A stretch of 44,189 nt of DNA from Escherichia phage JohannBuxtorf_Bas84. The notes under the pieces were generated by a model. That model saw only the letters and a list, made by a program, of their open reading frames with translations, made no database searches and was not told the DNA's origin. Positions 5,791 to 33,247 of the stretch are shown one piece after another. The DNA lies in the sequence record PQ850611.1; one strand, 5' to 3'. Position 1 is the first letter of the stretch; each line of letters starts with the position of its first letter. Position numbers and translations under genes: made by a program.

Positions 5791-5814
5791 TGCAACCAAT
5801 ATAGTGCAACCAAT
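5791..5814. promoter_or_regulatory. tandem TGCAACCAAT motif pair in divergent intergenic region
   Basis: TGCAACCAAT at 5791-5800 and 5805-5814 (14-bp period) between divergent genes 5004-5768 (-) and 5918-6619 (+). Confidence 0.45.
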
Positions 5815-8829: not shown

Positions 8830-9423
8830 GTGGCTGAAGTCTACTCATTCGCCGCCACTATTGCTACGTGGGTGGATAAGACGAAGGAGAACAACGATAA
8901 GGCGGTGCGTGCGTACGGGATGCAAATACTCGGACGCCTTATTGAGATCTCCCCAGTGGGCGACCCTCGCCGGTGGAAGATTAACAAGGCTTATGCAATG
9001 GCCCGCCAGCACGCGAACAAGGTGAACGCCGCACAGCGCCGCAAGAATGGCGGCAAACTGAAGCGTGGGCAGAAGAAGCACGCCAGTGTGCTAATCTCAT
9101 TCAAAACTAAAAACGGCAACGTCACGTTCCGCCAGCGTGGCTGGGCTGCGAAGAATTACACCGGCGGACGCTTCCGGGGAAACTGGCAGGTTACGTTCGA
9201 CCGCCCGGCTGTAGGCGCTATCGACCGCGTGGACAAGGCCGGAACGGCAACATTAGCCGCAGGGCGTGAAGTGCTGGCACATTACGATTCAGGTGAATAC
9301 GGGTCGATCTGGTTTACTAACAATGTGCCGTATGCGCAGCGACTTGAGTATGGTTGGAGTAAACAAGCGCCCGCGGGGATTGTTCGCGTCGTAGCGGCAG
9401 AAATTAATTCGAAGGTGAAATAA
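8830..9423 (+). CDS. putative HK97 gp10-like head-tail joining protein
   Basis: 197 aa, GTG start with RBS AAGGGG; motif GGRFRGNWQV resembles the conserved G-R-x-R-G-N-W signature of HK97 gp10-family proteins. Confidence 0.5.
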   Translation: MAEVYSFAATIATWVDKTKENNDKAVRAYGMQILGRLIEISPVGDPRRWKINKAYAMARQHANKVNAAQRRKNGGKLKRGQKKHASVLISFKTKNGNVTFRQRGWAAKNYTGGRFRGNWQVTFDRPAVGAIDRVDKAGTATLAAGREVLAHYDSGEYGSIWFTNNVPYAQRLEYGWSKQAPAGIVRVVAAEINSKVK

Positions 9424-9845
9424 TGAGCAATACTCTAATCCGCAAGGCGCTTAACAGCGTAGTAGAAGAATTATCGGTAAGCCTGAGCACTAGCACGCGC
9501 CCGATAAAGGTTAACTGGGAGAACGTGAGCGGCGACCACGCAAACGGCGGCGGTGTCTACCTGGAACCATATCTGCTTCCGGCCCCTACCCAGTTTGTGG
9601 GCTTCCAGCAGAAGGGCCGGATCTATGCAGGCGTGTATCAGGTCGCCGTGGTATTTCCTGCGGGAACTGGCACACAGTATGCGAGTGAACTGGCGGACGC
9701 CATCGCGACGTCTGACAAGTGGCAGGCCGTAAGGCTTACTGGCGCTGCATTCCAGCTTCAGGACGCGCCCTACACCAGTTCGGTGATTGAGGATGTTGAT
9801 CGTGCCCGCATCGTGGTCACAGTCCCCTACACCTGTTGCGCCTGA
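9423..9845 (+). CDS. putative tail terminator/neck protein
   Basis: 140 aa; ATG overlaps upstream stop (TAATG); position just upstream of major tail protein. Confidence 0.4.
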   Translation: MSNTLIRKALNSVVEELSVSLSTSTRPIKVNWENVSGDHANGGGVYLEPYLLPAPTQFVGFQQKGRIYAGVYQVAVVFPAGTGTQYASELADAIATSDKWQAVRLTGAAFQLQDAPYTSSVIEDVDRARIVVTVPYTCCA

Positions 9846-9905
9846 TTTGGCGCAATTCTATGCGTGCGGTATCATTAATCCGTATATCTAAACAGGAGCG
9901 TCATT

Positions 9906-10631
9906 ATGGGTTATCAACTTCCTAACGGGTCCAGCGTCCAGATTGGGTCCGTACTGGGCAGCGGCATCGCTGTTACGGCAGCTACCAACGCCGCCGCGTC
10001 TATCTCTGATCTTACGCAAGGTTGCGTTATCACCTGCGCGGCTTCTCATGGCCTGCAAGTCGGCGATGTGGTAATGTTCACTAAAACTCCGTGGGTCCGT
10101 GCGCTGAACCGAGCGTTCATCGTGGGTAAAGTGGCTACCAACGACGTTACGCTGGCGCGCTTCGACACCTCGGACGTGACCAAATATCCTACTGGCGCGT
10201 TTGGGGTGGGCACTCCTGGCGAAGTGGTGAAAGTGTCTAGCTTTATCGACTTCCCGTACATTACCAACGTTGCCGTGTCGGGTGGCGACCAGCAGACGAC
10301 TACCTTCCAGCCGTTGCAGGTGAACACCGCAATCAGTCTGAACACCACGAAAAACCCGTTGGTTCAGACTTACACCTTCACCCACGACGAAGAAGACCCG
10401 ATCCGCCCAATCCTGGAAGACCTGGACGACACACAGAAAACCACTGTGATTAAGTTCACTAACCCGGCAGCGGCAAGCGGCAAAGGTGAGATTCGTATTT
10501 ACCCGGCTAAGGTATCTTTCCAGAAGATTCCGTCCGCTGAAGTAAACAACGTGGAAACAGTACAATCCACTCTGACCATGCAGTCTGATATGGTTATCTA
10601 CCGTAAGGATCTTGTCGAGGCATTGTCTTGA
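9906..10631 (+). CDS. major tail protein
   Basis: 241 aa, RBS AGGAG; position upstream of chaperone/tape-measure; followed by strong terminator. Confidence 0.6.
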   Translation: MGYQLPNGSSVQIGSVLGSGIAVTAATNAAASISDLTQGCVITCAASHGLQVGDVVMFTKTPWVRALNRAFIVGKVATNDVTLARFDTSDVTKYPTGAFGVGTPGEVVKVSSFIDFPYITNVAVSGGDQQTTTFQPLQVNTAISLNTTKNPLVQTYTFTHDEEDPIRPILEDLDDTQKTTVIKFTNPAAASGKGEIRIYPAKVSFQKIPSAEVNNVETVQSTLTMQSDMVIYRKDLVEALS

Positions 10632-10660
10632 TTTGGTCGCTTAAATAGCGAGTGATAATA

Positions 10661-10685
10661 TGGGGCCAGCACGGCCCCTTTTTTA
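10661..10685 (+). terminator. intrinsic terminator after major tail gene
   Basis: stem ggggcc/ggcccc with 5-nt loop followed by T6. Confidence 0.75.
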
Positions 10686-10700
10686 TTGGAGAATACTACA

Positions 10701-11063
10701 ATGGCTAAAGCACCACTCTTTACACTTGACCCTAAGCCAACCTTTAAGCTGCCGATTGAGATCCCGCGCCCTGGTGAGAACGAACCAGGCAAGATGACTT
10801 TTACCGTCCGCCACCGCCCGATCGACGAATTTTCGCAAACCATGCAGGACACCGAACGGAAGCTGTCGGAATATGACGACAATGACCCGGACGGCTTTAA
10901 CGTTATGGTCGAGGCCATCATGCACGTCGCAGAAGGCTGGAATCTGCCGGACGAATTTAACGCGGAGAACGTCCGCCGCCTGGTGGTCAACTATCCACGC
11001 GCGTTCGGTGTGTTCCACACGTCGTACTATCTCGAACTGATGGGATTGCGTGAAAAAAACTAA
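10701..11063 (+). CDS. tail assembly chaperone (gpG-like)
   Basis: 120 aa from ATG with RBS GGAG; acidic small protein directly upstream of tape measure; ends just after slippery heptamer A_AAA_AAC. Confidence 0.6.
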   Translation: MAKAPLFTLDPKPTFKLPIEIPRPGENEPGKMTFTVRHRPIDEFSQTMQDTERKLSEYDDNDPDGFNVMVEAIMHVAEGWNLPDEFNAENVRRLVVNYPRAFGVFHTSYYLELMGLREKN

Positions 11064-11422
11064 TTGAGGCGGCGCGACGCTTTTATGGCCCGCCGCCACC
11101 CTCCGAAGATTTAGCCGCGAGTTTATGGGGTGCGGCCCCTGAAGATGTTTGTCCGCCTGTTGCGCTATGGCCCGACAACGCGAAGGTAGTCGCAGTCTTC
11201 ACAGATTGCTCCACGCAATGGCGCACCGGATTTGGTGGCGCATACGGCATCGACTACGGCGTGTTGGAGTGGTTATTTAAGATGCACGGTATCGAAAACG
11301 AGCAGCGCGCGTTTAAAGATATCAAGCTAACCCCCCCCCCCCAAAACTGCATATCTAATCACTTTCATTGCATAAACTCAAAGCGGGACAGGCGGGACGT
11401 CCCGTTTTGCCCCACCCCGTAA
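10701..11422 (+). CDS. tail assembly chaperone -1 frameshift product (gpGT-like); 3' end uncertain
   Basis: slippery site A AAA AAC at 11054-11060; the -1 frame is open with no Met-initiated ORF and encodes ...WPDNAKVVAVFTDCSTQWRTGFGGAYGIDYGVLEWLFKMHGIENEQRAFKDIKLT; reading frame then crosses a C12 homopolymer so the true C-terminus depends on tract length. Confidence 0.45.
11331..11342. repeat. poly-C homopolymer (12 nt)
   Basis: c x12 at 11331-11342 at the 3' end of the frameshift extension and immediately upstream of the CGGGACA repeat element. Confidence 0.9.
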
Positions 11423-11620
11423 ATGTGCATACCTATGCGGATTTCGTGCATAAACCAAACGGGACAAAAAGCGGGACAAACAAGGGGCGGGACAAAGCGG
11501 GACAGCACCCCGTCCCGCCAGTGCTGCCGCGGGTTTTCAGCCGATCGGGACAGCGGGACAGCACCCCAGTCTTTCAGACTAGACGGGGGTCAATGGCCCC
11601 CCTCGTCTGAGACTGAATAA
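11364..11620. repeat. structured non-coding element copy A: CGGGACA direct-repeat array plus 60-bp hairpin module
   Basis: 8 direct CGGGACA cores (11383, 11392, 11460, 11471, 11487, 11497, 11545, 11553), inverted GTCCCG at 11399 and 11512 forming dyads, then gcaccccagtctttcagactagacgggggtcaatggcccccctcgtctgagactgaataa (11561-11620) shared with copy B. Confidence 0.85.
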
Positions 11621-11683
11621 GGTTTGTTTGAAATTCGCTGATACAATGACAGTCGGCAACTGCATAAAAAAGGGGACTGCATA

Positions 11684-14326
11684 ATGGCAGATCAAGCAGC
11701 AGGCATCACGCTGAAGGCTGATGTCGCACAAATCAGAACGGCAAATACTGTGCTGGACTCCTTCGCACAGAAATCCGAGAACACAGAAAACAAGGTTAAG
11801 AAATTAAACGACACCCTCGGCAAATCCAAAAAGGTGACGAGTGACGCCGCGGGCGGAATGGAGAAGCTGGCGACTGAATCGCAGCGCGCTGCCGATGGCA
11901 TGACGAAACAGGAGCGACTTGCCAACAGGTTAGGCATGTCGACCAAAAACCTGGGCTTTGCCTCGCGTAACGCCGCATTCCAGTTACAGGATATCGCGGT
12001 TACGCTTGAGATGGGTATGCCGGTGCACCGCGTTATGCTTCAGCAGCTACCACAGCTAACCGGCGCATTTGGCGGACTGGGTAACACGCTGCGATATGTT
12101 GCAGGCTTCCTCGGCCCAGTAGGGATCGGCCTTGCCGCCGTAACGGCAACGTTAGGCGTGGGCGTGGCAATTACGTCCCGCGCAGAGAACCAGGTCGCCG
12201 CGCTTAACAAGACGCTGGCGCTTTCCGGCAACATTTCCGGCCTGACGGCAAACCAGATCCTGGTGCTATCCGAGAACGCCGAGCGCATGGGCGGGTCGTT
12301 CCGCAAGACGCGTGACACAATCCAGGCGCTGGCGGCGGCGGGTGTGAAAGCGGGAGGTGACTTCGGCGCACTGGCGAAGGTAGTGAATGACTTCGCGAAG
12401 GTGTCCAGCCAGCCGATCGAGGATGTGGTCGCGGCGGTGGCGAAGCTATCTACCGACCCGGTAGGTGGCTTGCGAGCATTGGCTGATAAGTATCACGTCG
12501 TAAACGAAGCGCAGATCCAGCAGGTGCAGTCACTAGTGACGGCTGGTCGCGAAACCGAAGCGGTGGCGCTGGCTAACAAAACAGCCGCAGCGTCGTTTAC
12601 CACTATGACCAATGAGATCAAGTCCAACATGGGTACGCTTGAGCGGTCGATGAACGTCGTTATATCGGCAGCTAAATCTATGTGGGATGCCATCCTGGAT
12701 GTCGGGCGCGCGCAGTCCTCGAATGAGTCAGAGATGAAAGCGCGTGAATCATTGCAGCGACTGACCACGGCTTACTATGCCGAGATGAAAGCGGTAAACG
12801 CTGCCGGTGGGGTGATGACCGAAGCGCAGAAAGCGCGTATTAACATGCTTTACAGCGAACTGGTAGCCCAGGAAAAAGTAGTGGCGTCGCTCACCCTGCG
12901 CAACCGTGCCGAGCGGGACAACGCCCGCGCCGCGGAAGAAGCAGCAAAGGCGAACGAGGAGGCCAACCGCACCGCCCGCGACCGCGCCGCGTTTGAGAAG
13001 GAGTACGCAACCAACGCGAAGAGGCGCGCCGACGAGATCGCCCGCCTCAATTTGCTGAATAAGCGCGGCGTGATTGACGAGAAAGAGCTTGCCGAGGCGG
13101 TGAAGCAGGTCAACGAGCGTTACAAAGACCCCGCCCCGAAGAAGGCCGCCGCTGTTCGCGTCGATGCAGGGATGAAAATGCTGGAAGTCGCGCGAAGCGA
13201 ACTGGCACAGCTTCGGGAATCAGGCAAGCAGATCGAAGCCAACGCATCGACGCAGACCCGCACGCAACGCGCTCAAGCGGCCCTAAACAAGCTGATCGCG
13301 GATAATGAGCAGTTAATCGCCGCAAGCAAAGAAAGAGCACTAACGGCAGCGGAAAAGCAGCAGATTGCCGAATTCGGACGCGTGAAGGAAGTACGCGAGC
13401 AGATCGTCGAAGAAGCCAAATTGCTGGACGCGAAAGAGAAGCAGGTCAAGGCGCACGCGCAGATCGACGCCTTCGTTAAGAACCAGAACGCCGAGCTAAA
13501 AGCCACCGCGGTGGGCTATGCGCTTTCCACTCGCGAAGCGGCTAACCTGCGCGAAGAATTGCAGCTAATTGACCGCCTTAAGCGGGTGGGCGCTAGCGAT
13601 ACCGATATTGATCTGGCGGTGTCTAAGCTGCGCGAAGTGCAGGAAGCACAGACCGGTGCTAACGCCTCGCTATGGGATGGCTTCAGCCGCGGGCTTAAGG
13701 ATAGCGTGGATGAAATGGGTAACGGCTACACGCAGATGACGTCACTCACAAAATTCACGTTCGGCGCTATGCAGGACACGATGAACGAGTTTTTCGAGAC
13801 TGGCAAGCTGAACGCAAAAGATATGGTTAAGTCCATTCTGAGCGAATTAATAAAGCTGGCTACCTCGCAGGCGTTCAAGTCCATCGTTAGCGCTTTCGGT
13901 GGCGACGGCGGCAAAAACGGATTGTTCGGCGCTATCTTCTCCGGCCTCACTAAGAATGCGGACGGCGGAGCGTACGCAGGGGGCAATCTCGCGGCCTATT
14001 CGGGGCAGGTGGTAAGCCAGCCAACCTTTTTCAGTTATGGCGTCCAGGCGTTCGCTAAGGGCGCAGGATTGATGGGTGAGGCCGGACCCGAAGCCATCAT
14101 GCCACTGAAGCGCGGCCCGGACGGCAAACTTGGAGTCGCCGCTGCCGGTGTAGGCGGGGGGATGATTGTAACGACCTACGTTAACATGGGGACCGGTAAG
14201 ACGGATACCAGTGTTAGCGGACCAGACCCGCGCACCGCGCAGGCGTTCGGGAAGCAAATCACCGAGTCGGTCAAGGCCGAGATCGTGAAGGCGACGAAAC
14301 CGGGTGGTGTACTTTACAAACGATGA
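11684..14326 (+). CDS. tail tape measure protein
   Basis: 880 aa, RBS AGGGGA; long Ala/Gln/Lys/Glu-rich helical sequence with Gly-rich C-terminal part; position after chaperone pair. Confidence 0.85.
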   Translation: MADQAAGITLKADVAQIRTANTVLDSFAQKSENTENKVKKLNDTLGKSKKVTSDAAGGMEKLATESQRAADGMTKQERLANRLGMSTKNLGFASRNAAFQLQDIAVTLEMGMPVHRVMLQQLPQLTGAFGGLGNTLRYVAGFLGPVGIGLAAVTATLGVGVAITSRAENQVAALNKTLALSGNISGLTANQILVLSENAERMGGSFRKTRDTIQALAAAGVKAGGDFGALAKVVNDFAKVSSQPIEDVVAAVAKLSTDPVGGLRALADKYHVVNEAQIQQVQSLVTAGRETEAVALANKTAAASFTTMTNEIKSNMGTLERSMNVVISAAKSMWDAILDVGRAQSSNESEMKARESLQRLTTAYYAEMKAVNAAGGVMTEAQKARINMLYSELVAQEKVVASLTLRNRAERDNARAAEEAAKANEEANRTARDRAAFEKEYATNAKRRADEIARLNLLNKRGVIDEKELAEAVKQVNERYKDPAPKKAAAVRVDAGMKMLEVARSELAQLRESGKQIEANASTQTRTQRAQAALNKLIADNEQLIAASKERALTAAEKQQIAEFGRVKEVREQIVEEAKLLDAKEKQVKAHAQIDAFVKNQNAELKATAVGYALSTREAANLREELQLIDRLKRVGASDTDIDLAVSKLREVQEAQTGANASLWDGFSRGLKDSVDEMGNGYTQMTSLTKFTFGAMQDTMNEFFETGKLNAKDMVKSILSELIKLATSQAFKSIVSAFGGDGGKNGLFGAIFSGLTKNADGGAYAGGNLAAYSGQVVSQPTFFSYGVQAFAKGAGLMGEAGPEAIMPLKRGPDGKLGVAAAGVGGGMIVTTYVNMGTGKTDTSVSGPDPRTAQAFGKQITESVKAEIVKATKPGGVLYKR

Positions 14327-14333
14327 TAAAATG

Positions 14334-14361
14334 GCCCTCACTACAACGTGGGGGCTTTTTT
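14334..14361 (+). terminator. hairpin plus T6 (terminator/attenuator) between tape measure and next tail gene
   Basis: stem gccctcac/gtgggggc (one G-U) with 6-nt loop followed by T6 ending at the ATG 14362. Confidence 0.55.
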
Positions 14362-14961
14362 ATGTCACAAGGTACAATCACACTAACGAAAGGAAGTAAG
14401 ACCGTCACGGGCGCGGGGACGGCGTTCCTGAGCGAGATTGGGAAGGTCCGCGTATTTGCCCGCATCGACGGCAACGACTACACCGGCAAAATTGCAGCAT
14501 TCAACTCTAACACCGTCATCACCCTGGCGGATAACTGGGCAGGTCCGACAAAAGCCGGTGTGGCTTATGAGCTAATCGAAGCGCACGACCCGCGGTCAAA
14601 CGAATGGCCATATTACTGGCACATGCAATTGCAAGGCGGCGGGGACGTGCAGTTAGCTTTCCGGTCCGAGGAATTGCAATTTGGTAACGGTTACGGTCAG
14701 AACATCGCGGACGGCCCGAACGCCGAAACGAAACAGTTCCCCGTGCAATTCATCGGACTTACTACTGACAAGTGGTGCGACCCTAAACTGGTTTACAACT
14801 TTCTTCGCGGTCACTTCGTCAAGCCGTTTGTTGTCACCGCGCCGGATGGCGAAACAGGTTTATTCGTGGTCGAGCGTTCGAGCTTGTCGTACACTGACAA
14901 CGGGCACTACACGGCAACTGTGTCCGCCACCCTTAAGACAGCTATTGGATTCGTAAGATGA
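14362..14961 (+). CDS. minor/distal tail protein (alternative start ATG 14323 overlapping tape-measure stop)
   Basis: 199 aa from ATG 14362; N-terminal ~55 aa (MSQGTITLTKGSKTVTGAGTAF...) aligns with N-terminus of tail fibre 21836-23632. Confidence 0.5.
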   Translation: MSQGTITLTKGSKTVTGAGTAFLSEIGKVRVFARIDGNDYTGKIAAFNSNTVITLADNWAGPTKAGVAYELIEAHDPRSNEWPYYWHMQLQGGGDVQLAFRSEELQFGNGYGQNIADGPNAETKQFPVQFIGLTTDKWCDPKLVYNFLRGHFVKPFVVTAPDGETGLFVVERSSLSYTDNGHYTATVSATLKTAIGFVR

Positions 14962-15746
14962 ATAAACTATATCGCGAGGCGACGCGCTTTGACCCATCGG
15001 GACGCGTTCGCCTGATTCACATTGATGCGCAGGACGTGGAACCAGGCGACGGCGCGATCGGCGCGGGCCATCACTATTTTCACTATTGCTTTATTCCGCA
15101 CACTGCCGAGGATATTGCCGCCGCAGGTGGTGACGAGGACAAGCTAAAACCTAAATCCATCTTCTTCGGCGGGCAGGAGTTCGAATTTTGGCCCTTCGAT
15201 TTGTCCGGCCTTAACTTCTCCACATCAACGGCAGCAGAACCGCAGCTAACTATTGTCGATATTGGTGGCATAATCACCCGGCTATCACTAAATCACGACC
15301 AGCTACTGGGCGCAAAGGTTGAGATCATTGATACGTTCGCGAAGTTCCTGGATAACGGGTCGGATCCAGACCCGACGCAAAAACGTGTCCAGGAGTATTA
15401 CATCGACTCACAGGTAGGGCGCAATCCGGGCAAGCAGATAACCTTCGCGCTATCCTCCCCCGCGGATATGGAAGGGCAGGTCGTCCCGCGTCGCCAAATC
15501 ATGAACATGTGCGAATGGGCGTTAAATGGGAAGTACGCCAGCGGGGACGGTTGCACGTGGAACCTTGCGAAGCCCGGCATCAAGTATTACGACGAGCGCG
15601 GAAACGAAGTCATCTCGATGGATATGGACCGCTGCGGCGGATGCTTGTCGGACTGTTATCTCCGTTTTGGTCAAGGTCTTGCGGATCCCAAAGCCGCAGT
15701 GCTGGACTTCGGCGGTTTTCCCGGATCAAAATTGATTAAGGGGTAG
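14958..15746 (+). CDS. minor tail protein (lambda gpL-like)
   Basis: 262 aa; ATGA overlap with upstream gene; C-terminal cysteine cluster MDRCGGCLSDC as in Fe-S containing gpL-like proteins; synteny. Confidence 0.55.
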   Translation: MNKLYREATRFDPSGRVRLIHIDAQDVEPGDGAIGAGHHYFHYCFIPHTAEDIAAAGGDEDKLKPKSIFFGGQEFEFWPFDLSGLNFSTSTAAEPQLTIVDIGGIITRLSLNHDQLLGAKVEIIDTFAKFLDNGSDPDPTQKRVQEYYIDSQVGRNPGKQITFALSSPADMEGQVVPRRQIMNMCEWALNGKYASGDGCTWNLAKPGIKYYDERGNEVISMDMDRCGGCLSDCYLRFGQGLADPKAAVLDFGGFPGSKLIKG

Positions 15747-15748
15747 TC

Positions 15749-16489
15749 ATGCTAACGAAGAAGGTTAAAAGCGATATCGCCGCACATGTCGCGGCATGTC
15801 TGCCGGAAGAAGCCTGCGGCCTTGTCGTCATGGTGGGCCGCAAACAAGTATTTGTCCCGTGCATGAACGTATTCGAAGACCCGACCGGCGTGCGCTCACG
15901 CAGAGACGCATTCACGATTAGTGATATGGCCTGGATGGATGCCGAGGATATGGGCGACGTCGTGCGAGTAGTCCACTCGCATCCAGGCCAGCGAGAGCTT
16001 ACACCCTCACTTGGCGACGTTAACGGATGCAACGGCAGCGGCGTAGTCTGGACCATCACTAACGAATATGGCGACTTTATCGAGATCGACCCTGAAGACC
16101 CGCCGCTGGTAGGCCGCCGATTTGTTCTCGGAATTACAGATTGTTATGGCCTCGTCATGGACTGGCACAAAAAGCAGGGTGTAAACCTGCCAGACTTCCG
16201 CGTGCCGTATAACTGGTGGGAGACAGGCGAAAATCTGTATATGGATAATTGGTACGGTGCTGGCTTCAGGGAATGCGAGGAGAATACGCCGGGGGCAATG
16301 GTCATCATGCAGATTAGCGCGCCTGTGCCTAACCACGCTGGGATATTCCTTCCGGGCAACCAACTACTACACCATATCTACGGCAGCCTGTCGAGCGTGA
16401 TCCCCTTCCGGGCAGGATTTTTCCGCGACAATGTGGTTAAATGGGTACGTCATAAAGACCTACCAGGGAATATCACAGAATGGCAATGA
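15749..16489 (+). CDS. tail assembly protein (lambda gpK-like, MPN/JAMM + NlpC/P60-like)
   Basis: 246 aa, RBS AAGGGG; JAMM-like VVHSHPG motif and Cys/His-containing C-terminal half (DCYG...H); synteny L-K-I-J. Confidence 0.65.
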   Translation: MLTKKVKSDIAAHVAACLPEEACGLVVMVGRKQVFVPCMNVFEDPTGVRSRRDAFTISDMAWMDAEDMGDVVRVVHSHPGQRELTPSLGDVNGCNGSGVVWTITNEYGDFIEIDPEDPPLVGRRFVLGITDCYGLVMDWHKKQGVNLPDFRVPYNWWETGENLYMDNWYGAGFRECEENTPGAMVIMQISAPVPNHAGIFLPGNQLLHHIYGSLSSVIPFRAGFFRDNVVKWVRHKDLPGNITEWQ

Positions 16490-24781: not shown

Positions 24782-24843
24782 GGTTTGTCTCCTTTGAAGG
24801 GAGGCGGTATTGCCTCCCGATGTGGCTAATGTAATTGGTTGCA

Positions 24844-25314
24844 TTATTGGTTGCAAGTGAATTTTGCAAGATTCACTGAATAAATGTGCGGGACCAGTTC
24901 TTCGCACGCCCGTTTGATGGCGGCTATGTTCTTCGCGCAGTCGTCAATGATGACCAGTTCGTTAACATCTGCGTAGCACACCAGGCCAAATACGGAACGA
25001 GCTTTATATTCCGGCGGCGGGGTGTCATCCAGCATGTGGCGCAAGAACAGACGGCCTTTCGGGAATCGGTCTAATTGCTCTTTCGTTGTCTCCCAGCATT
25101 CAGACTGGCGGTTTGACAGGTACGCAATGTCGAAGCCCTGTTTAGCGTACATGCGCAATAACGGCAGCATGTCATAATTAATGTCTTCGCGGACGTGGGC
25201 CTTATGCCACTTCGCCCAAAACGTTGATTTAGTCTTGATCCCCGGAACTAGGTCGTCGCGCACACTGCTTGACCCGTTGATAACGCCATCTAAATCGCAA
25301 ATCAGTAGTTTCAT
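24844..25314 (-). CDS. HAD-superfamily phosphatase (5'-nucleotidase-like)
   Basis: 156 aa; N-terminal HAD motif I LICDLDGV; internal ...IIDD motif; ATGA coupling with upstream ORF. Confidence 0.6.
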   Translation of the reverse strand: MKLLICDLDGVINGSSSVRDDLVPGIKTKSTFWAKWHKAHVREDINYDMLPLLRMYAKQGFDIAYLSNRQSECWETTKEQLDRFPKGRLFLRHMLDDTPPPEYKARSVFGLVCYADVNELVIIDDCAKNIAAIKRACEELVPHIYSVNLAKFTCNQ

Positions 25315-25998: not shown

Positions 25999-26443
25999 GC
26001 TGCGGGTCCAGTGCGTAAAGTGGGATTTTCTTGTCGCTGGTCAGCACGCGTTTCAGTCGCTCTAATTCCTGCTCCCCTAGCGGACGTGAATCAGAATAGT
26101 AGCTGCCGTTTGCCCGCCACGCCATAAGCACCAGGTCTTTACGGTCGATCTTAGACTGGCGGCCTTTCGGGCGCACGTATTCCTCGGCCCGTTTGCAATG
26201 CTCGCGCAAACCTTCGGCAGTGATGCGGTTTAGGGCAACGCTGGTTGTATATCCGGTGCGCTGCATAATCCCCATCAATTCGAAAAGCAGTTCGAAGCGC
26301 TCCTCTAATTCCTTGCGCATCTTCTCCTCGCCTTCATAGCTTGCCAGGTAGGTATCAGCCAGCGCGTTCGCCCGTTCGGCTTGCTCTCGGGCTTCGAGGC
26401 ATTGCGCGGCCCAGTAATTTTTCTCTTCTTGTAAAATTTTCAT
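25985..26443 (-). CDS. hypothetical protein
   Basis: 152 aa; RBS GGAGA; charged helical N-terminal half; no recognised motif. Confidence 0.55.
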   Translation of the reverse strand: MKILQEEKNYWAAQCLEAREQAERANALADTYLASYEGEEKMRKELEERFELLFELMGIMQRTGYTTSVALNRITAEGLREHCKRAEEYVRPKGRQSKIDRKDLVLMAWRANGSYYSDSRPLGEQELERLKRVLTSDKKIPLYALDPQHDGE

Positions 26444-26460
26444 CGTGTTGTCTCCGGGTA

Positions 26461-26488
26461 TTAAAAAGGGCGTCCAAACCGGACACCC
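26461..26488 (-). terminator. minus-strand hairpin plus U5 between motif pair and RBS of 25985-26443
   Basis: stem gggtgtcc/ggacgccc (one G-U) with 5-nt loop followed on the minus strand by TTTTT; lies between TGCAACCAAT pair (26498-26524) and the RBS. Confidence 0.5.
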
Positions 26489-26524
26489 TCAATATAATGC
26501 AACCAATCTAATTATGCAACCAAT

Positions 26525-33157: not shown

Positions 33158-33247
33158 TTTCCAATTCCTCATTTTCACATGTATCGGGGTTATTGTGAGC
33201 CACCCCGTACGGCTTGGTTGCTAATCTACTTGGTTGCGCCTAAGCGG

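Follow-up and report, generated by a model that had tools for sequence, protein, structure and literature searches.

Two copies of an iteron-plus-hairpin cassette as a candidate replication origin of the Dhillonvirus Bas84

The alpha protein of P4 and ORF904 of pRN1 are initiators that bind origins adjoining their own genes. In P4, where alpha is the primase-helicase, ori and crr are named as separate elements. The defining property of crr is that it is required in cis. Its details are reportedly to be found in Flensburg & Calendar 1987 and Ziegelin et al. 1993. Replication of pRN1 depends on a stem-loop that can be relocated within the replicon, and an origin of the pRN1 type has also been proposed for the Bordetella phages BIP-1/BPP-1. 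The primase-helicase of Escherichia phage JohannBuxtorf_Bas84 resembles these initiators. The window analysed here is the whole Bas84 sequence (44,189 nt), the complete genome of a Dhillonvirus (HK578/SO-1-like). The HK578 homologues gp45-gp46 have been linked to replication initiation, and P2 OLD restricts HK578, with escape mutations located in the helicase-primase gene and in the promoter of its operon.

The closest described counterpart of the elements reported here belongs to Sodalis phage SO-1, whose GenBank entry GQ502199 marks a repeat_region A at 11214-11597 (before the tape-measure gene) and B at 40178-40657 (after the helicase/primase gene), with a note that begins 'direct, inverted and palindromic repeat sequences; sequence similarity with region B; possible ...'. 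Regions A and B of Bas84 are the same elements at homologous positions, known in SO-1 from annotation alone. The original prediction, made for the Bas84 region A, had taken the element to be undescribed, which this annotation contradicts. A literature search found neither a paper characterising SO-1-type regions A/B nor an experimental mapping of any Dhillonvirus origin.

Architecture of the two copies

Copy A is a non-coding block between the tail chaperone and tape-measure genes, where the original prediction had placed it and where the ORF coordinates confirm it. The following features (window positions) make up the copy and its surroundings.

10686-11063: tail chaperone ORF
11331-11342, + strand: C12 tract, standing in place of ~78 nt present in all relatives
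11345-11383, + strand: A+T-rich box (68% AT) with TGCATA (11348) and TTGCATAAA (11368-11376), 5' of the first iterons
11384-11404, + strand: iteron CGGGACA, then the palindrome CGGGACGTCCCG (two head-to-head iterons), the remnant of repeat unit 2 of region A
11423-11455, + strand: second box pair, TGCATA / TGCATAAA (gTGCATAcc ... gTGCATAAAcc)
11460-11518, + strand: four direct iterons at 11460, 11472, 11488 and 11498 and an inverted GTCCCGC (11512-11518), giving a dyad
11546-11560, + strand: iteron doublet CGGGACAGCGGGACA, immediately 5' of the hairpin
11567-11615, no strand assigned: long imperfect hairpin of 49 nt, with 20 bp in three tiers
11639-11647, + strand: TGATACAAT, an extended -10-like element
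11684: ATG of the tape-measure gene

The exact motif CGGGACA occurs 17 times in the genome compared to 6.1 ± 2.7 times in shuffled sequences, none of which (0 of 100) reached 17, and the predicted excess of the array over chance therefore holds. All but four of these occurrences fall into two clusters of three or more short direct repeats in non-coding DNA, with every member on the + strand: seven at 11384-11560, within ~180 nt, and six at 39074-39174, within ~100 nt. Eight cores had been counted in copy A, and seven of these are exact, the eighth being the variant CGGGACG (11393-11399), the left arm of a perfect palindrome, CGGGACGTCCCG (11393-11404). This palindrome and the dyad GCGGGAC-n8-GTCCCGC at 11497-11518 both lie where they had been predicted. 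The hairpin had been described as a 60-bp module of nested stems; it is present, spans 49 nt and pairs in a slightly different register, with the stems CAGTC/GACTG, TCAGAC/GTCTGA, GA/TC and GGGGGTC/GGCCCCC and one U-G pair in the apical stem. Its single-strand folding energy is -28.4 kcal/mol as RNA (z -4.1) and -13.4 kcal/mol as DNA (z -3.5).

With the ~78 nt missing at the C12 tract, a gpT-like ORF loses its last ~16 codons and region A its first ~78-nt repeat unit. All 153 comparable records align across this point as two pieces, with 189 nt where Bas84 has 111; the probable cause is either an artefact of assembly or a private deletion.

Copy B follows the operon that encodes the primase-helicase.

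36308-36637, + strand: gene of a small HTH protein (109 aa), the first gene of the primase-helicase operon
36648-38912, + strand: primase-helicase gene (754 aa), encoding an AEP PrimPol-like N-terminal domain, a Cys/His motif, an RSF1010 RepA-like helicase and a C-terminal HTH/winged-helix-like domain
39029-39068, + strand: 40-nt A+T-rich stretch (80% AT) with GAATAGTTATGCA (39041) and TGCATAA (39061), just 5' of the copy B iterons
39074-39174, + strand: copy B iterons, direct at 39074, 39086, 39102 and 39112, inverted GTCCCGC at 39127-39133, and a doublet at 39160 and 39168
39182-39230, no strand assigned: copy B hairpin, in Bas84 of the same sequence as that of copy A
39255-39265, + strand: ACACGGCAGCA box, 3' of hairpin B

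Copy B begins ~160 nt 3' of the primase-helicase stop codon, its cassette proper spans 39074-39230, and its hairpin lies 270-318 nt from the same stop codon; copy A has no linkage to the primase-helicase gene. The iteron spacings of the two copies are equal (12, 16, 10, 48 and 8 nt), and an alignment of A with B has 163 of 192 columns identical, with the last ~76 nt the same except for one 1-nt indel. The two distant regions thus have iterons, spacing and hairpin in common, in agreement with the original prediction that the same architecture recurs 27.7 kb away. The separation is 16.5 kb the other way around the circular map. Both copies point the same way, co-directional with transcription, and the cassette is confined to these two loci. 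Coding is ruled out for both regions by 1-nt indels between the copies and by non-triplet indels in alignments. In many GenBank records, these non-coding stretches are annotated as hypothetical ORFs.

The stretch at 39029-39068 is the genome maximum of A+T content among 40-nt segments (80%, as against 68% for its copy A counterpart). On this composition, it is a candidate DNA-unwinding element. Its GAATAGTTATGCA box is kept in distant lineages. The TGCATA(A) boxes of region A match the DnaA box at 8 of 9 positions on the - strand, a level at which ~34 matches would be expected genome-wide by a hand estimate; as the part kept across lineages is GAATAGTTATGCA and not the DnaA core, we rejected their identity as DnaA boxes, which is a weak lead at most.

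The proteins of the adjoining operon bear on how the cassette might be read. The best Foldseek match of the helicase domain is 1g8y, the RepA of RSF1010 (E 7.6e-11, TM(target) 0.69, rmsd 3.0 over 240 columns), and the domain matches Pfam AAA_25 (E 1.2e-19), which makes it a RepA-type hexameric helicase. The N-terminal domain has an AEP PrimPol fold (6zp9, E 6.4e-6) with an invariant DxD, and its only significant match is the S-2L PrimPol domain. The C-terminus of the protein is predicted to consist of helix-helix-helix and two strands, and this HTH-like domain is a candidate reader of the iterons. The 109-aa HTH protein, which displays similarity to sigma-70 region 4, is an alternative candidate. 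The C-terminal domains of two distant relatives, L074 and L076, are about two-thirds identical by eye, although their iterons differ.

Conservation and distant counterparts

Regions A and B are both present in essentially all of ~158 Dhillonvirus records, which excludes an assembly artefact, one of the conditions under which the original prediction was to be abandoned. The A+T-rich box at 11345-11383 is kept, and TGATACAAT is invariant, in 10 region A versions. Within the genus, the stems of the hairpin do not vary and changes are limited to the apical loop, while the flanks diverge to ~76% identity. As 16 of the 20 pairs never vary, there is no covariation signal at this level. The loops of A and B differ from each other in most Dhillonviruses.

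Outside the genus, a counterpart cassette follows the primase-helicase gene in Hafnia phage TS33 and in the contigs L074, L076, L079, L137 and L138, whose primase-helicases are only 37-46% identical to that of Bas84, so that the linkage to the putative initiator gene holds for copy B and for all six counterparts. The order of elements is common to these lineages: flanking boxes, direct iterons, dyad, iteron doublet and three-tier hairpin. The doublet at the CGGGACAGCGGGACA position occurs in every related lineage, and the ACACGGCAGCA box is kept. The repeat unit itself changes by lineage (CGGGACA, TCCGACA, AGGGATA or GGGGATG), as does the hairpin sequence, while the layout stays constant. The z-scores of the hairpins across lineages range from -2.2 to -4.4 as RNA and from -2.4 to -3.5 as DNA, and in four of five lineages the more stable fold is that of the - strand, with an advantage over the mRNA-sense strand of 3-8 kcal/mol (RNA) or 0.2-2.7 kcal/mol (DNA).

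Exact searches of the distant lineages with their own iteron doublets and hairpin arms gave one copy per contig. In the complete genomes of TS33 and of Salmonella phage Jersey there is no cassette between the chaperone and tape-measure genes, and the latter directly follows or overlaps the former. Since related lineages carry a single, B-type copy, copy A is a Dhillonvirus-specific duplication. Jersey encodes a homologous primase-helicase, yet its whole genome is free of iteron clusters. The metagenomic relatives L070, L071, L075 and L077 likewise have a homologous primase-helicase without the cassette, and a plain terminator is found at its place. The cassette is thus not an obligate partner of this primase-helicase family.

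Searches beyond these phages returned little. Rfam 15 gave no match at the gathering threshold and, at E<=5, only chance miRNA matches (17-20 bits against a cut-off of 77). Blastn gave no match among 5,426 complete E. coli genomes or 72,556 plasmids (PLSDB), and a host repetitive element (REP/ERIC-like) or a plasmid origin was rejected accordingly. Some unrelated viral contigs contain arrays of the same 8-mer, CGGGACAG. In L034, L044 and L012/L040/L041 these lie <=~170 nt after primase/helicase genes, which belong to three other protein families, and in L013/L049 the array is next to a small terminase gene, not a replication gene. An all-vs-all BLAST of Bas84 ORFs with those of the CGGGACAG-array contigs gave helicase-core similarity only, in L034, and hhalign of the C-terminal domains gave a non-significant probability of 0.4%. 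Because neither method revealed a common DNA-binding domain, a common iteron reader was rejected for these contigs, and the shared 8-mer is probably a by-product of searching for it.

Possible functions of the cassette

Considering (i) the tie of the cassette to the 3' end of the primase-helicase gene, (ii) the change of the repeat by lineage within a layout that is kept, and (iii) the adjoining A+T-rich stretch, we favor an origin-type reading, and we give an even chance to the proposition that regions A and B are a cis-acting, iteron-plus-hairpin replication origin present in two copies. The original prediction had proposed an array of sites for a DNA-binding protein fused to a hairpin, and listed a replication origin among its options. 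The three comparative observations above lend support to that option, with a transcriptional role still conceivable. The origin reading is also favored by the folds of the helicase and primase domains, the restriction of the cassette to two loci, the constancy of the hairpin stems beside diverging flanks, the non-coding character of the regions and the CGGGACAG arrays behind primase or helicase genes of other contigs. Against it count the genomes that have the primase-helicase but lack the cassette, the resemblance between the C-terminal domains of L074 and L076 in spite of their different iterons, the CGGGACAG array beside a small terminase gene, the common orientation of both copies with transcription, and the promoter-like elements that come after the hairpin.

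If this reading is correct, the CGGGACA iterons and their dyads would be bound by a phage protein, either the C-terminal HTH-like domain of the primase-helicase or the small HTH protein. The neighbouring A+T-rich box would melt, and the RepA-like helicase would be loaded there. The long hairpin, extruded as single-stranded DNA, could serve as a structural landmark or as a priming site for the AEP primase domain, a role modelled on ssi signals or on the pRN1 stem-loop. Copy B, which adjoins the primase-helicase gene, would be the ancestral site, whereas copy A would have been duplicated in the Dhillonvirus ancestor, enlarged by extra palindromic units and set between the chaperone and tape-measure genes, where it may act as a second origin or as a crr-like enhancer. 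A more elaborate version, which we regard as rather unlikely, is a bipartite two-copy origin with copy A embedded in the late tail operon, in which late transcription through region A, or the extra palindromic units, would turn on a second site of initiation or change the mode of replication. The extruded iteron/hairpin structures could in that case be a signal for defences that sense origin hairpins. A late origin has been reported for ICP1, which, like P4 crr, offers a parallel for a late second initiation site.

A serious though unlikely alternative is that the cassette controls transcription. The hairpin would terminate or attenuate transcripts (hairpin B after the early HTH/primase-helicase operon, hairpin A after the abundant tail tube and chaperone genes), and the iterons would bind a phage regulator of a promoter downstream, TGATACAAT in A and the TTGCAAAAT / TATTAT region in B. 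In favor of this, both copies are oriented with transcription and sit at junctions of expected expression change, the invariant extended -10-like TGATACAAT lies 24 nt 3' of hairpin A and is, by its sequence, a possible promoter of the tape-measure gene, and sigma-70 promoters of the TTGACA-17-TATTGT type follow the cassette in distant lineages. The plain terminator at the same place in the four metagenomic relatives that lack the cassette and the sigma-70 region-4-like similarity of the HTH protein encoded by the first gene of the operon point the same way. However, a U/T tract is missing from the hairpin (the letters that come next are AATAAGG in A and AATAAAATCC in B), an intrinsic terminator scan does not call it, and a consensus scan calls no sigma-70 promoter in region A or B. 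The layout would be odd for an operator, with 6-8 lineage-specific repeats 50-170 nt upstream and the hairpin between repeats and promoter. Furthermore, a separate, dispersed motif associated with promoters exists: TTGGTTGC has 21 copies in the genome versus 2.1 expected and precedes genes in ~9 intergenic regions. It is absent from region A and, judged by this distribution, is a better candidate for a transcription signal than the cassette. Nor would transcription control account for the A+T-rich box or for the constant linkage with the primase-helicase gene. A role as a late-promoter activator site is conceivable but less likely.

Copy A could also be a neutral or selfish duplication that was fixed in the ancestor of the genus, with copy B alone being functional. 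Related genera have the B-type copy only, and the close succession of chaperone and tape-measure genes in Jersey and TS33 fits an insertion of this kind. We nevertheless deem it improbable: all ~158 records have kept copy A, its iterons and stems unchanged despite diverging flanks and its extra palindromic units conserved, and the difference between A and B loops in most phages means that ongoing gene conversion alone does not maintain the similarity.

We judge it quite improbable that the cassette acts as a structured RNA, whether in cis or as a small RNA, such as a stabiliser of mRNA 3' ends, a processing site or a protein-binding RNA in which CGGGACA acts as a protein sponge. The high stability of the + strand hairpin, the mRNA orientation of both copies and the U-G pair in the apical stem would suit an RNA, but Rfam contains no matching family, even at E<=5, most lineages have a (-) strand that folds better, and iterons in both orientations, arranged as dyads, are typical of duplex-DNA sites. 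A CsrA-type sponge, based on the GGA inside CGGGACA, was rejected as a common function as the TCCGACA lineage has no GGA.

A packaging (pac/cos) site bound by the small terminase, another of the options first put forward, is very improbable indeed: small-terminase sites are often repeat arrays, the CGGGACAG array adjoins terS in one unrelated contig, and several GenBank records end ~46 nt after region B, but the 5' cos ATCTTAAGGG of EE09, the sole PhageTerm-defined end in the genus, lies at window ~26495, >12 kb from either copy, other Dhillonviruses are reported to be circularly permuted, there are no iterons near terS (1-552), and the record ends near region B are apparently conventions.

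Dhillonviruses, which include HK578, several BASEL phages and many therapy candidates, are in wide use. Should regions B and A prove to be origins, they would provide a defined 170-nt cassette for phage-dependent replicons and a model for how a fusion of AEP primase and RepA helicase recognises an origin made of iterons and a hairpin. Since HK578 is OLD-sensitive and its escapers carry mutations in the helicase-primase, it could then also be used to test directly whether OLD- and Lamassu-type defences detect hairpins of single-stranded DNA at the origins of phages, as has recently been proposed.

Comparison with described origins

The ori/crr pair of P4 resembles regions A and B in that two separated non-coding regions carry one short repeat in direct and inverted orientation, and the initiator is a single polypeptide with primase and helicase parts, the C-terminal winged-helix domain of alpha binding the repeats. 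The Bas84 protein is, however, not a homologue of alpha, which combines a Toprim primase with an SF3 helicase, whereas the phage protein has the AEP fold and a RepA/RecA-like helicase (AAA_25, RSF1010 RepA-like). P4 also has no long hairpin, its repeat sequence is a different one, and 4.5 kb separate its sites, compared to 27.7 kb (or 16.5 kb the other way) in Bas84.

The parallel with oriV of RSF1010 (IncQ) concerns both DNA and proteins. This oriV is made up of iterons, GC-rich and AT-rich segments and the ssiA and ssiB hairpins, and as in the phage the iterons adjoin an A+T-rich segment and a hairpin that would be exposed as single-stranded DNA. Its RepA is the best structural match of the phage helicase, and the phage primase is of the AEP-type fold, although a match between the phage primase domain and RepB' was not obtained (the best match being the S-2L PrimPol). 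RSF1010 employs three separate proteins (RepC, RepA and RepB') and iterons of 20 bp, as opposed to 7-8 bp in the phage. Its ssiA and ssiB hairpins occupy opposite strands of one origin, whereas Bas84 has one hairpin per cassette, with the two in the same orientation and far apart, and thus displays no paired opposite-strand ssi hairpins.

The pRN1 system differs from Bas84 by its SF3 helicase, a stem-loop of ~100 nt and the absence of iterons, as against a RepA-like helicase, a ~49-nt hairpin, 6-8 iterons and a duplicated cassette in the phage. The gene order, however, is common to both: an operon of a small DNA-binding protein (orf56 in pRN1) and an AEP primase-helicase with a C-terminal DNA-binding domain (orf904) is followed shortly downstream by a stem-loop, and this is the arrangement in which copy B of Bas84 is found.

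The duplicated cassette and its conservation

The window is a complete Dhillonvirus genome (HK578/SO-1-like E. coli siphophages; 44,189 nt, start set at the small terminase gene), which has the gene order of annotated members of the genus and, over 9000-16000, 94-96% identity to phages such as CS16, slur05 and jat. Region A lies between the tail chaperone and tape-measure genes, and region B about 27.7 kb away, after the primase-helicase gene.

Gene blocks and cassette elements
1 to ~23.6 kb, + strand: packaging, head and tail genes
~23.6 to 36 kb, − strand: DNA-metabolism genes
from 36.3 kb, + strand: small HTH gene, 754-aa primase-helicase gene, small ORFs, lysis genes, metallophosphatase, then back into the terminase genes
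11384-11560, + strand: seven exact CGGGACA copies (region A)
39074-39174, + strand: six exact CGGGACA copies (region B)
11567-11615 (copy A) and 39182-39230 (copy B): hairpin module, a single 20-bp imperfect hairpin with three tiers

The window contains 17 exact CGGGACA copies where 6.1 are expected by chance. The original prediction counted eight cores in region A; seven are exact, and the eighth is CGGGACG, the left half of the palindrome CGGGACGTCCCG, which is perfect and located at 11393-11404 as described. The dyad GCGGGAC-n8-GTCCCGC was likewise confirmed at 11497-11518. Iteron spacings are equal in the two copies (12, 16, 10, 48 and 8 nt), and a pairwise alignment, identical in 163 of 192 columns, bears out the recurrence of the architecture. 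The common part spans about 170 nt, from a TTGCATAAA box to ATAA 3′ of the hairpin, between unrelated outer flanks. Folded as RNA, the hairpin has an energy of −28.4 kcal/mol (z −4.1); folded as DNA, it has −13.4 kcal/mol (z −3.5). The A+T-richest stretch of 40 nt in the genome (39029-39068, 80% AT) adjoins the B iterons. Judged by sequence comparison, both regions are non-coding because the copies differ by 1-nt indels and cross-phage alignments contain non-triplet indels. Hypothetical-protein ORFs are annotated over them in MK373789 (PTXU06_00027/28), PQ850624 (Bas85_0018-20), OR756193 (EE09_18-20) and OQ589852.

The two copies are real and not an assembly artefact, as both regions occur in 158 Dhillonvirus records, usually in two places each. 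An alignment of distinct versions, 10 of region A and 15 of region B, shows no variation in the iterons, in the dyad, in the iteron doublet 5′ of the hairpin or in either hairpin arm; variation falls in the 7-8-nt apical loop and the ~25-nt dyad-to-doublet segment. Sixteen of the 20 hairpin pairs never vary, leaving within-genus covariation uninformative; the hairpin is constrained both in sequence and in pairing. The apical loops of A and B are unlike each other in most phages, and the copies are thus not simply homogenised by gene conversion. The proposed joining of a repeat array, with its putative protein-binding sites, to a hairpin stands, and the finding is real and conserved. As an observation the element is not new: the Sodalis phage SO-1 record GQ502199 already carries repeat_region features 'region A' and 'region B', with the wording 'consists of direct, inverted and palindromic repeat sequences; sequence similarity with region B; possible ...'. 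The cassette has been annotated since 2009; no paper in the library searched discusses the regions, and no characterisation was found.

Upstream, region A of relatives contains another two tandem units of ~78 nt, each consisting of CGGGACA-nn-CGGGACGTCCCG-tttt-GTCCCGCC followed by TGCATA-n16-TGCATAAA. The window has a C12 tract (11331-11342) where relatives carry the first unit and the final ~16 codons of their gpT-like ORF, and the ORF as written reads through into region A, ending at 11419-11421. None of 153 comparable Dhillonvirus records shares this junction, and the replaced ~78 nt are present in all 153. The tract probably reflects misassembly at a tandem repeat, or else a private deletion, and it does not affect the finding.

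The primase-helicase and the cassette in distant lineages

Pfam identified only AAA_25 in the 754-aa primase-helicase. In an AlphaFold model built on 36 homologues, the N-terminal domain is confidently modelled (pLDDT 94 when alone), and among PDB structures it significantly matches only the AEP domain of cyanophage S-2L PrimPol (E 6.4e-6); residues D87-x-D89 are invariant, and a Cys/His cluster occupies 246-287. The helicase domain is structurally closest to the RSF1010 RepA helicase (E 7.6e-11, TM 0.69). The C-terminus (666-737), with three predicted helices and two strands, is predicted with moderate confidence to be HTH/winged-helix-like; a fold search gave no confirmation. A profile of the C-terminal ~100 amino acids (window 38630-38909) matches the TALE-like repeat protein BurrH (PDB 4cj9) with a summed E of 3e-35. 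The match is carried by the short motif GFSxxxIVKxAGxxGG, which pairs with almost all BurrH repeats in individually weak stretches of at most 12 bits. A helix-loop-helix DNA-reading unit common to both proteins could account for it, as could coincidence. The operon opens with the gene of a 109-aa HTH protein. The HK578 homologues, gp45-gp46, have been implicated in replication initiation; escapers of P2 OLD in HK578 map to gp46 and to the operon promoter, and the authors of that study put forward hairpins at the origins of phages as the signal sensed by OLD.

Relatives of the primase-helicase were sought in IMG/VR, and the Hafnia phage TS33 provided a complete genome. At only 37-46% protein identity, five viral contigs (L074, L076, L079, L137, L138) and TS33 retain the same ordered layout directly 3′ of the gene. 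First come one or two GAATAGTTATGCA boxes, then direct iterons and an iteron dyad; beyond a spacer lie an iteron doublet and a hairpin with three tiers (~50-60 nt), followed by an ACACGGCA(G/A)CA box and a sigma-70-like promoter of the next operon. The iteron unit is lineage-specific (TCCGACA, AGGGATA, GGGGATG/A) and the hairpin sequence wholly different, yet all fold as comparable long hairpins (z-scores −2.2 to −4.4). In every one of these lineages and in the window, the − strand, complementary to mRNA, folds slightly better (the difference reaches 7.7 kcal/mol under RNA parameters and is 0.2-2.7 kcal/mol under DNA parameters), which weakly hints that the relevant form is single-stranded DNA rather than sense mRNA.

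Exact searches with each distant lineage's own doublets and hairpin arms found a single cassette per contig, and in TS33 and the Salmonella phage Jersey the tape-measure gene overlaps the chaperone genes or begins directly after them. Because relatives have one copy and this junction lacks a cassette in TS33 and Jersey, the comparison identifies copy B as ancestral and copy A as a Dhillonvirus-specific duplication. The cassette is not universal: Jersey, L070, L071, L075 and L077 encode a homologous protein followed only by a plain terminator or the adjacent gene, and the Jersey genome contains no iteron cluster anywhere.

A search with the CGGGACAG doublet pattern also retrieved arrays in unrelated viral contigs, their units direct and inverted and often beside A+T-rich DNA.

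CGGGACA(G) arrays in unrelated IMG/VR contigs
L034, 6810-6960
L012, 3473-3620
L041, 2495-2816
L044, 4866-5108
L040, 11976-12220
L013, 2824-2960

Five of about nine such lineages have the array within ~170 nt 3′ of a primase or helicase gene, of the AAA_25 (L034), VapE (L044) or phrog_35358 (L012, L040, L041) family; that of L013 lies upstream of, and next to, a small terminase gene. Since no DNA-binding domain common to the window and these contigs was found, the identical 8-mer is probably a consequence of the search pattern, and the useful part is the recurring position after replication genes.

Transcription signals and other readings

A transcriptional cassette combining an attenuator, regulator sites and a promoter is a plausible alternative, as both copies are located where a drop in expression is expected, TGATACAAT is invariant 3′ of hairpin A, and other lineages have promoters 3′ of the cassette. 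However, the hairpin has no T tract, a consensus promoter scan calls none, and the A+T-rich box and the linkage to the primase-helicase gene are left unexplained. The form of a standard terminator in this phage is shown by a canonical hairpin at 10662-10678 (GGGGCCAGCACGGCCCC then TTTTTT), which directly follows the major tail protein gene and precedes the chaperone genes.

A better candidate than CGGGACA for a phage transcription signal is TTGGTTGC, present in 21 copies where 2.1 would be expected, most of them paired at a distance of 12-35 nt within ~9 intergenic regions just upstream of gene starts, some with a −10-like hexamer 16-17 nt later. From its distribution it looks like a dispersed promoter/operator signal, unlike the CGGGACA clusters, which are confined to two loci; it flanks region B on both sides and is absent from region A. 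In L078, a distant relative, eight copies of GCAACCAAC stand 3′ of the primase-helicase gene.

Sites of TTGGTTGC
5792-5813, 24835-24854, 26499-26523, 33214-33237, 36110, 38979-39021, 39296, 39387-39425, 42528-42558
single copies: 21811, 29409

Two other repeat clusters were noted: five AATTGCA copies near ~14489, in the minor tail gene region, and eight CTTCGTC copies near ~32406, in − strand coding sequence, probably an acidic repeat.

A packaging site (pac/cos) is disfavoured, as the cos position of phage EE09 maps to window ~26495. The PhageTerm-predicted 5′ cos end of EE09 (ATCTTAAGGG...) aligns to ~26438-26504 (− strand), where the window reads atattgaggg, directly beside a TTGGTTGC pair and near an HNH endonuclease gene; other Dhillonviruses, in contrast, have been reported as circularly permuted. 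An RNA element is unsupported, by Rfam or by the strand asymmetry of folding. A host or plasmid source of the cassette sequence was excluded, as blastn gave no match in 5,426 complete E. coli genomes or 72,556 plasmids.

A candidate origin and its known counterparts

The best reading of regions A and B, to which we give about an even chance, is a duplicated origin-type cassette. Besides the comparative evidence, pointers to an origin are the A+T-rich window beside the B iterons, the confinement of CGGGACA to two loci while TTGGTTGC suits a transcription signal better, and the recurrence of arrays after replication genes in unrelated contigs. An initiator domain would bind the iterons and dyads, the A+T-rich box would melt and the RepA-like helicase load there, and the hairpin, extruded as single-stranded DNA, would position the AEP primase. 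Copy A could serve as an additional origin or as a crr-like enhancer; a precedent is the lytic phage ICP1, in which a second origin becomes active late in infection. For a phage genus in wide use, this gives an origin candidate that is concrete and can be tested.

The finding fits an already known kind of element. A mode of action like the one proposed here is known from P4 ori/crr and its alpha protein, from RSF1010 oriV, which has iterons and ssi hairpins, and from the pRN1 stem-loop origin downstream of orf56/orf904. The cassette is nevertheless not a homologous member of these systems: the primase and helicase classes of P4 and pRN1 are unlike those of the phage protein, and RSF1010 has two opposed ssi hairpins, an arrangement that differs from that of the phage cassette.
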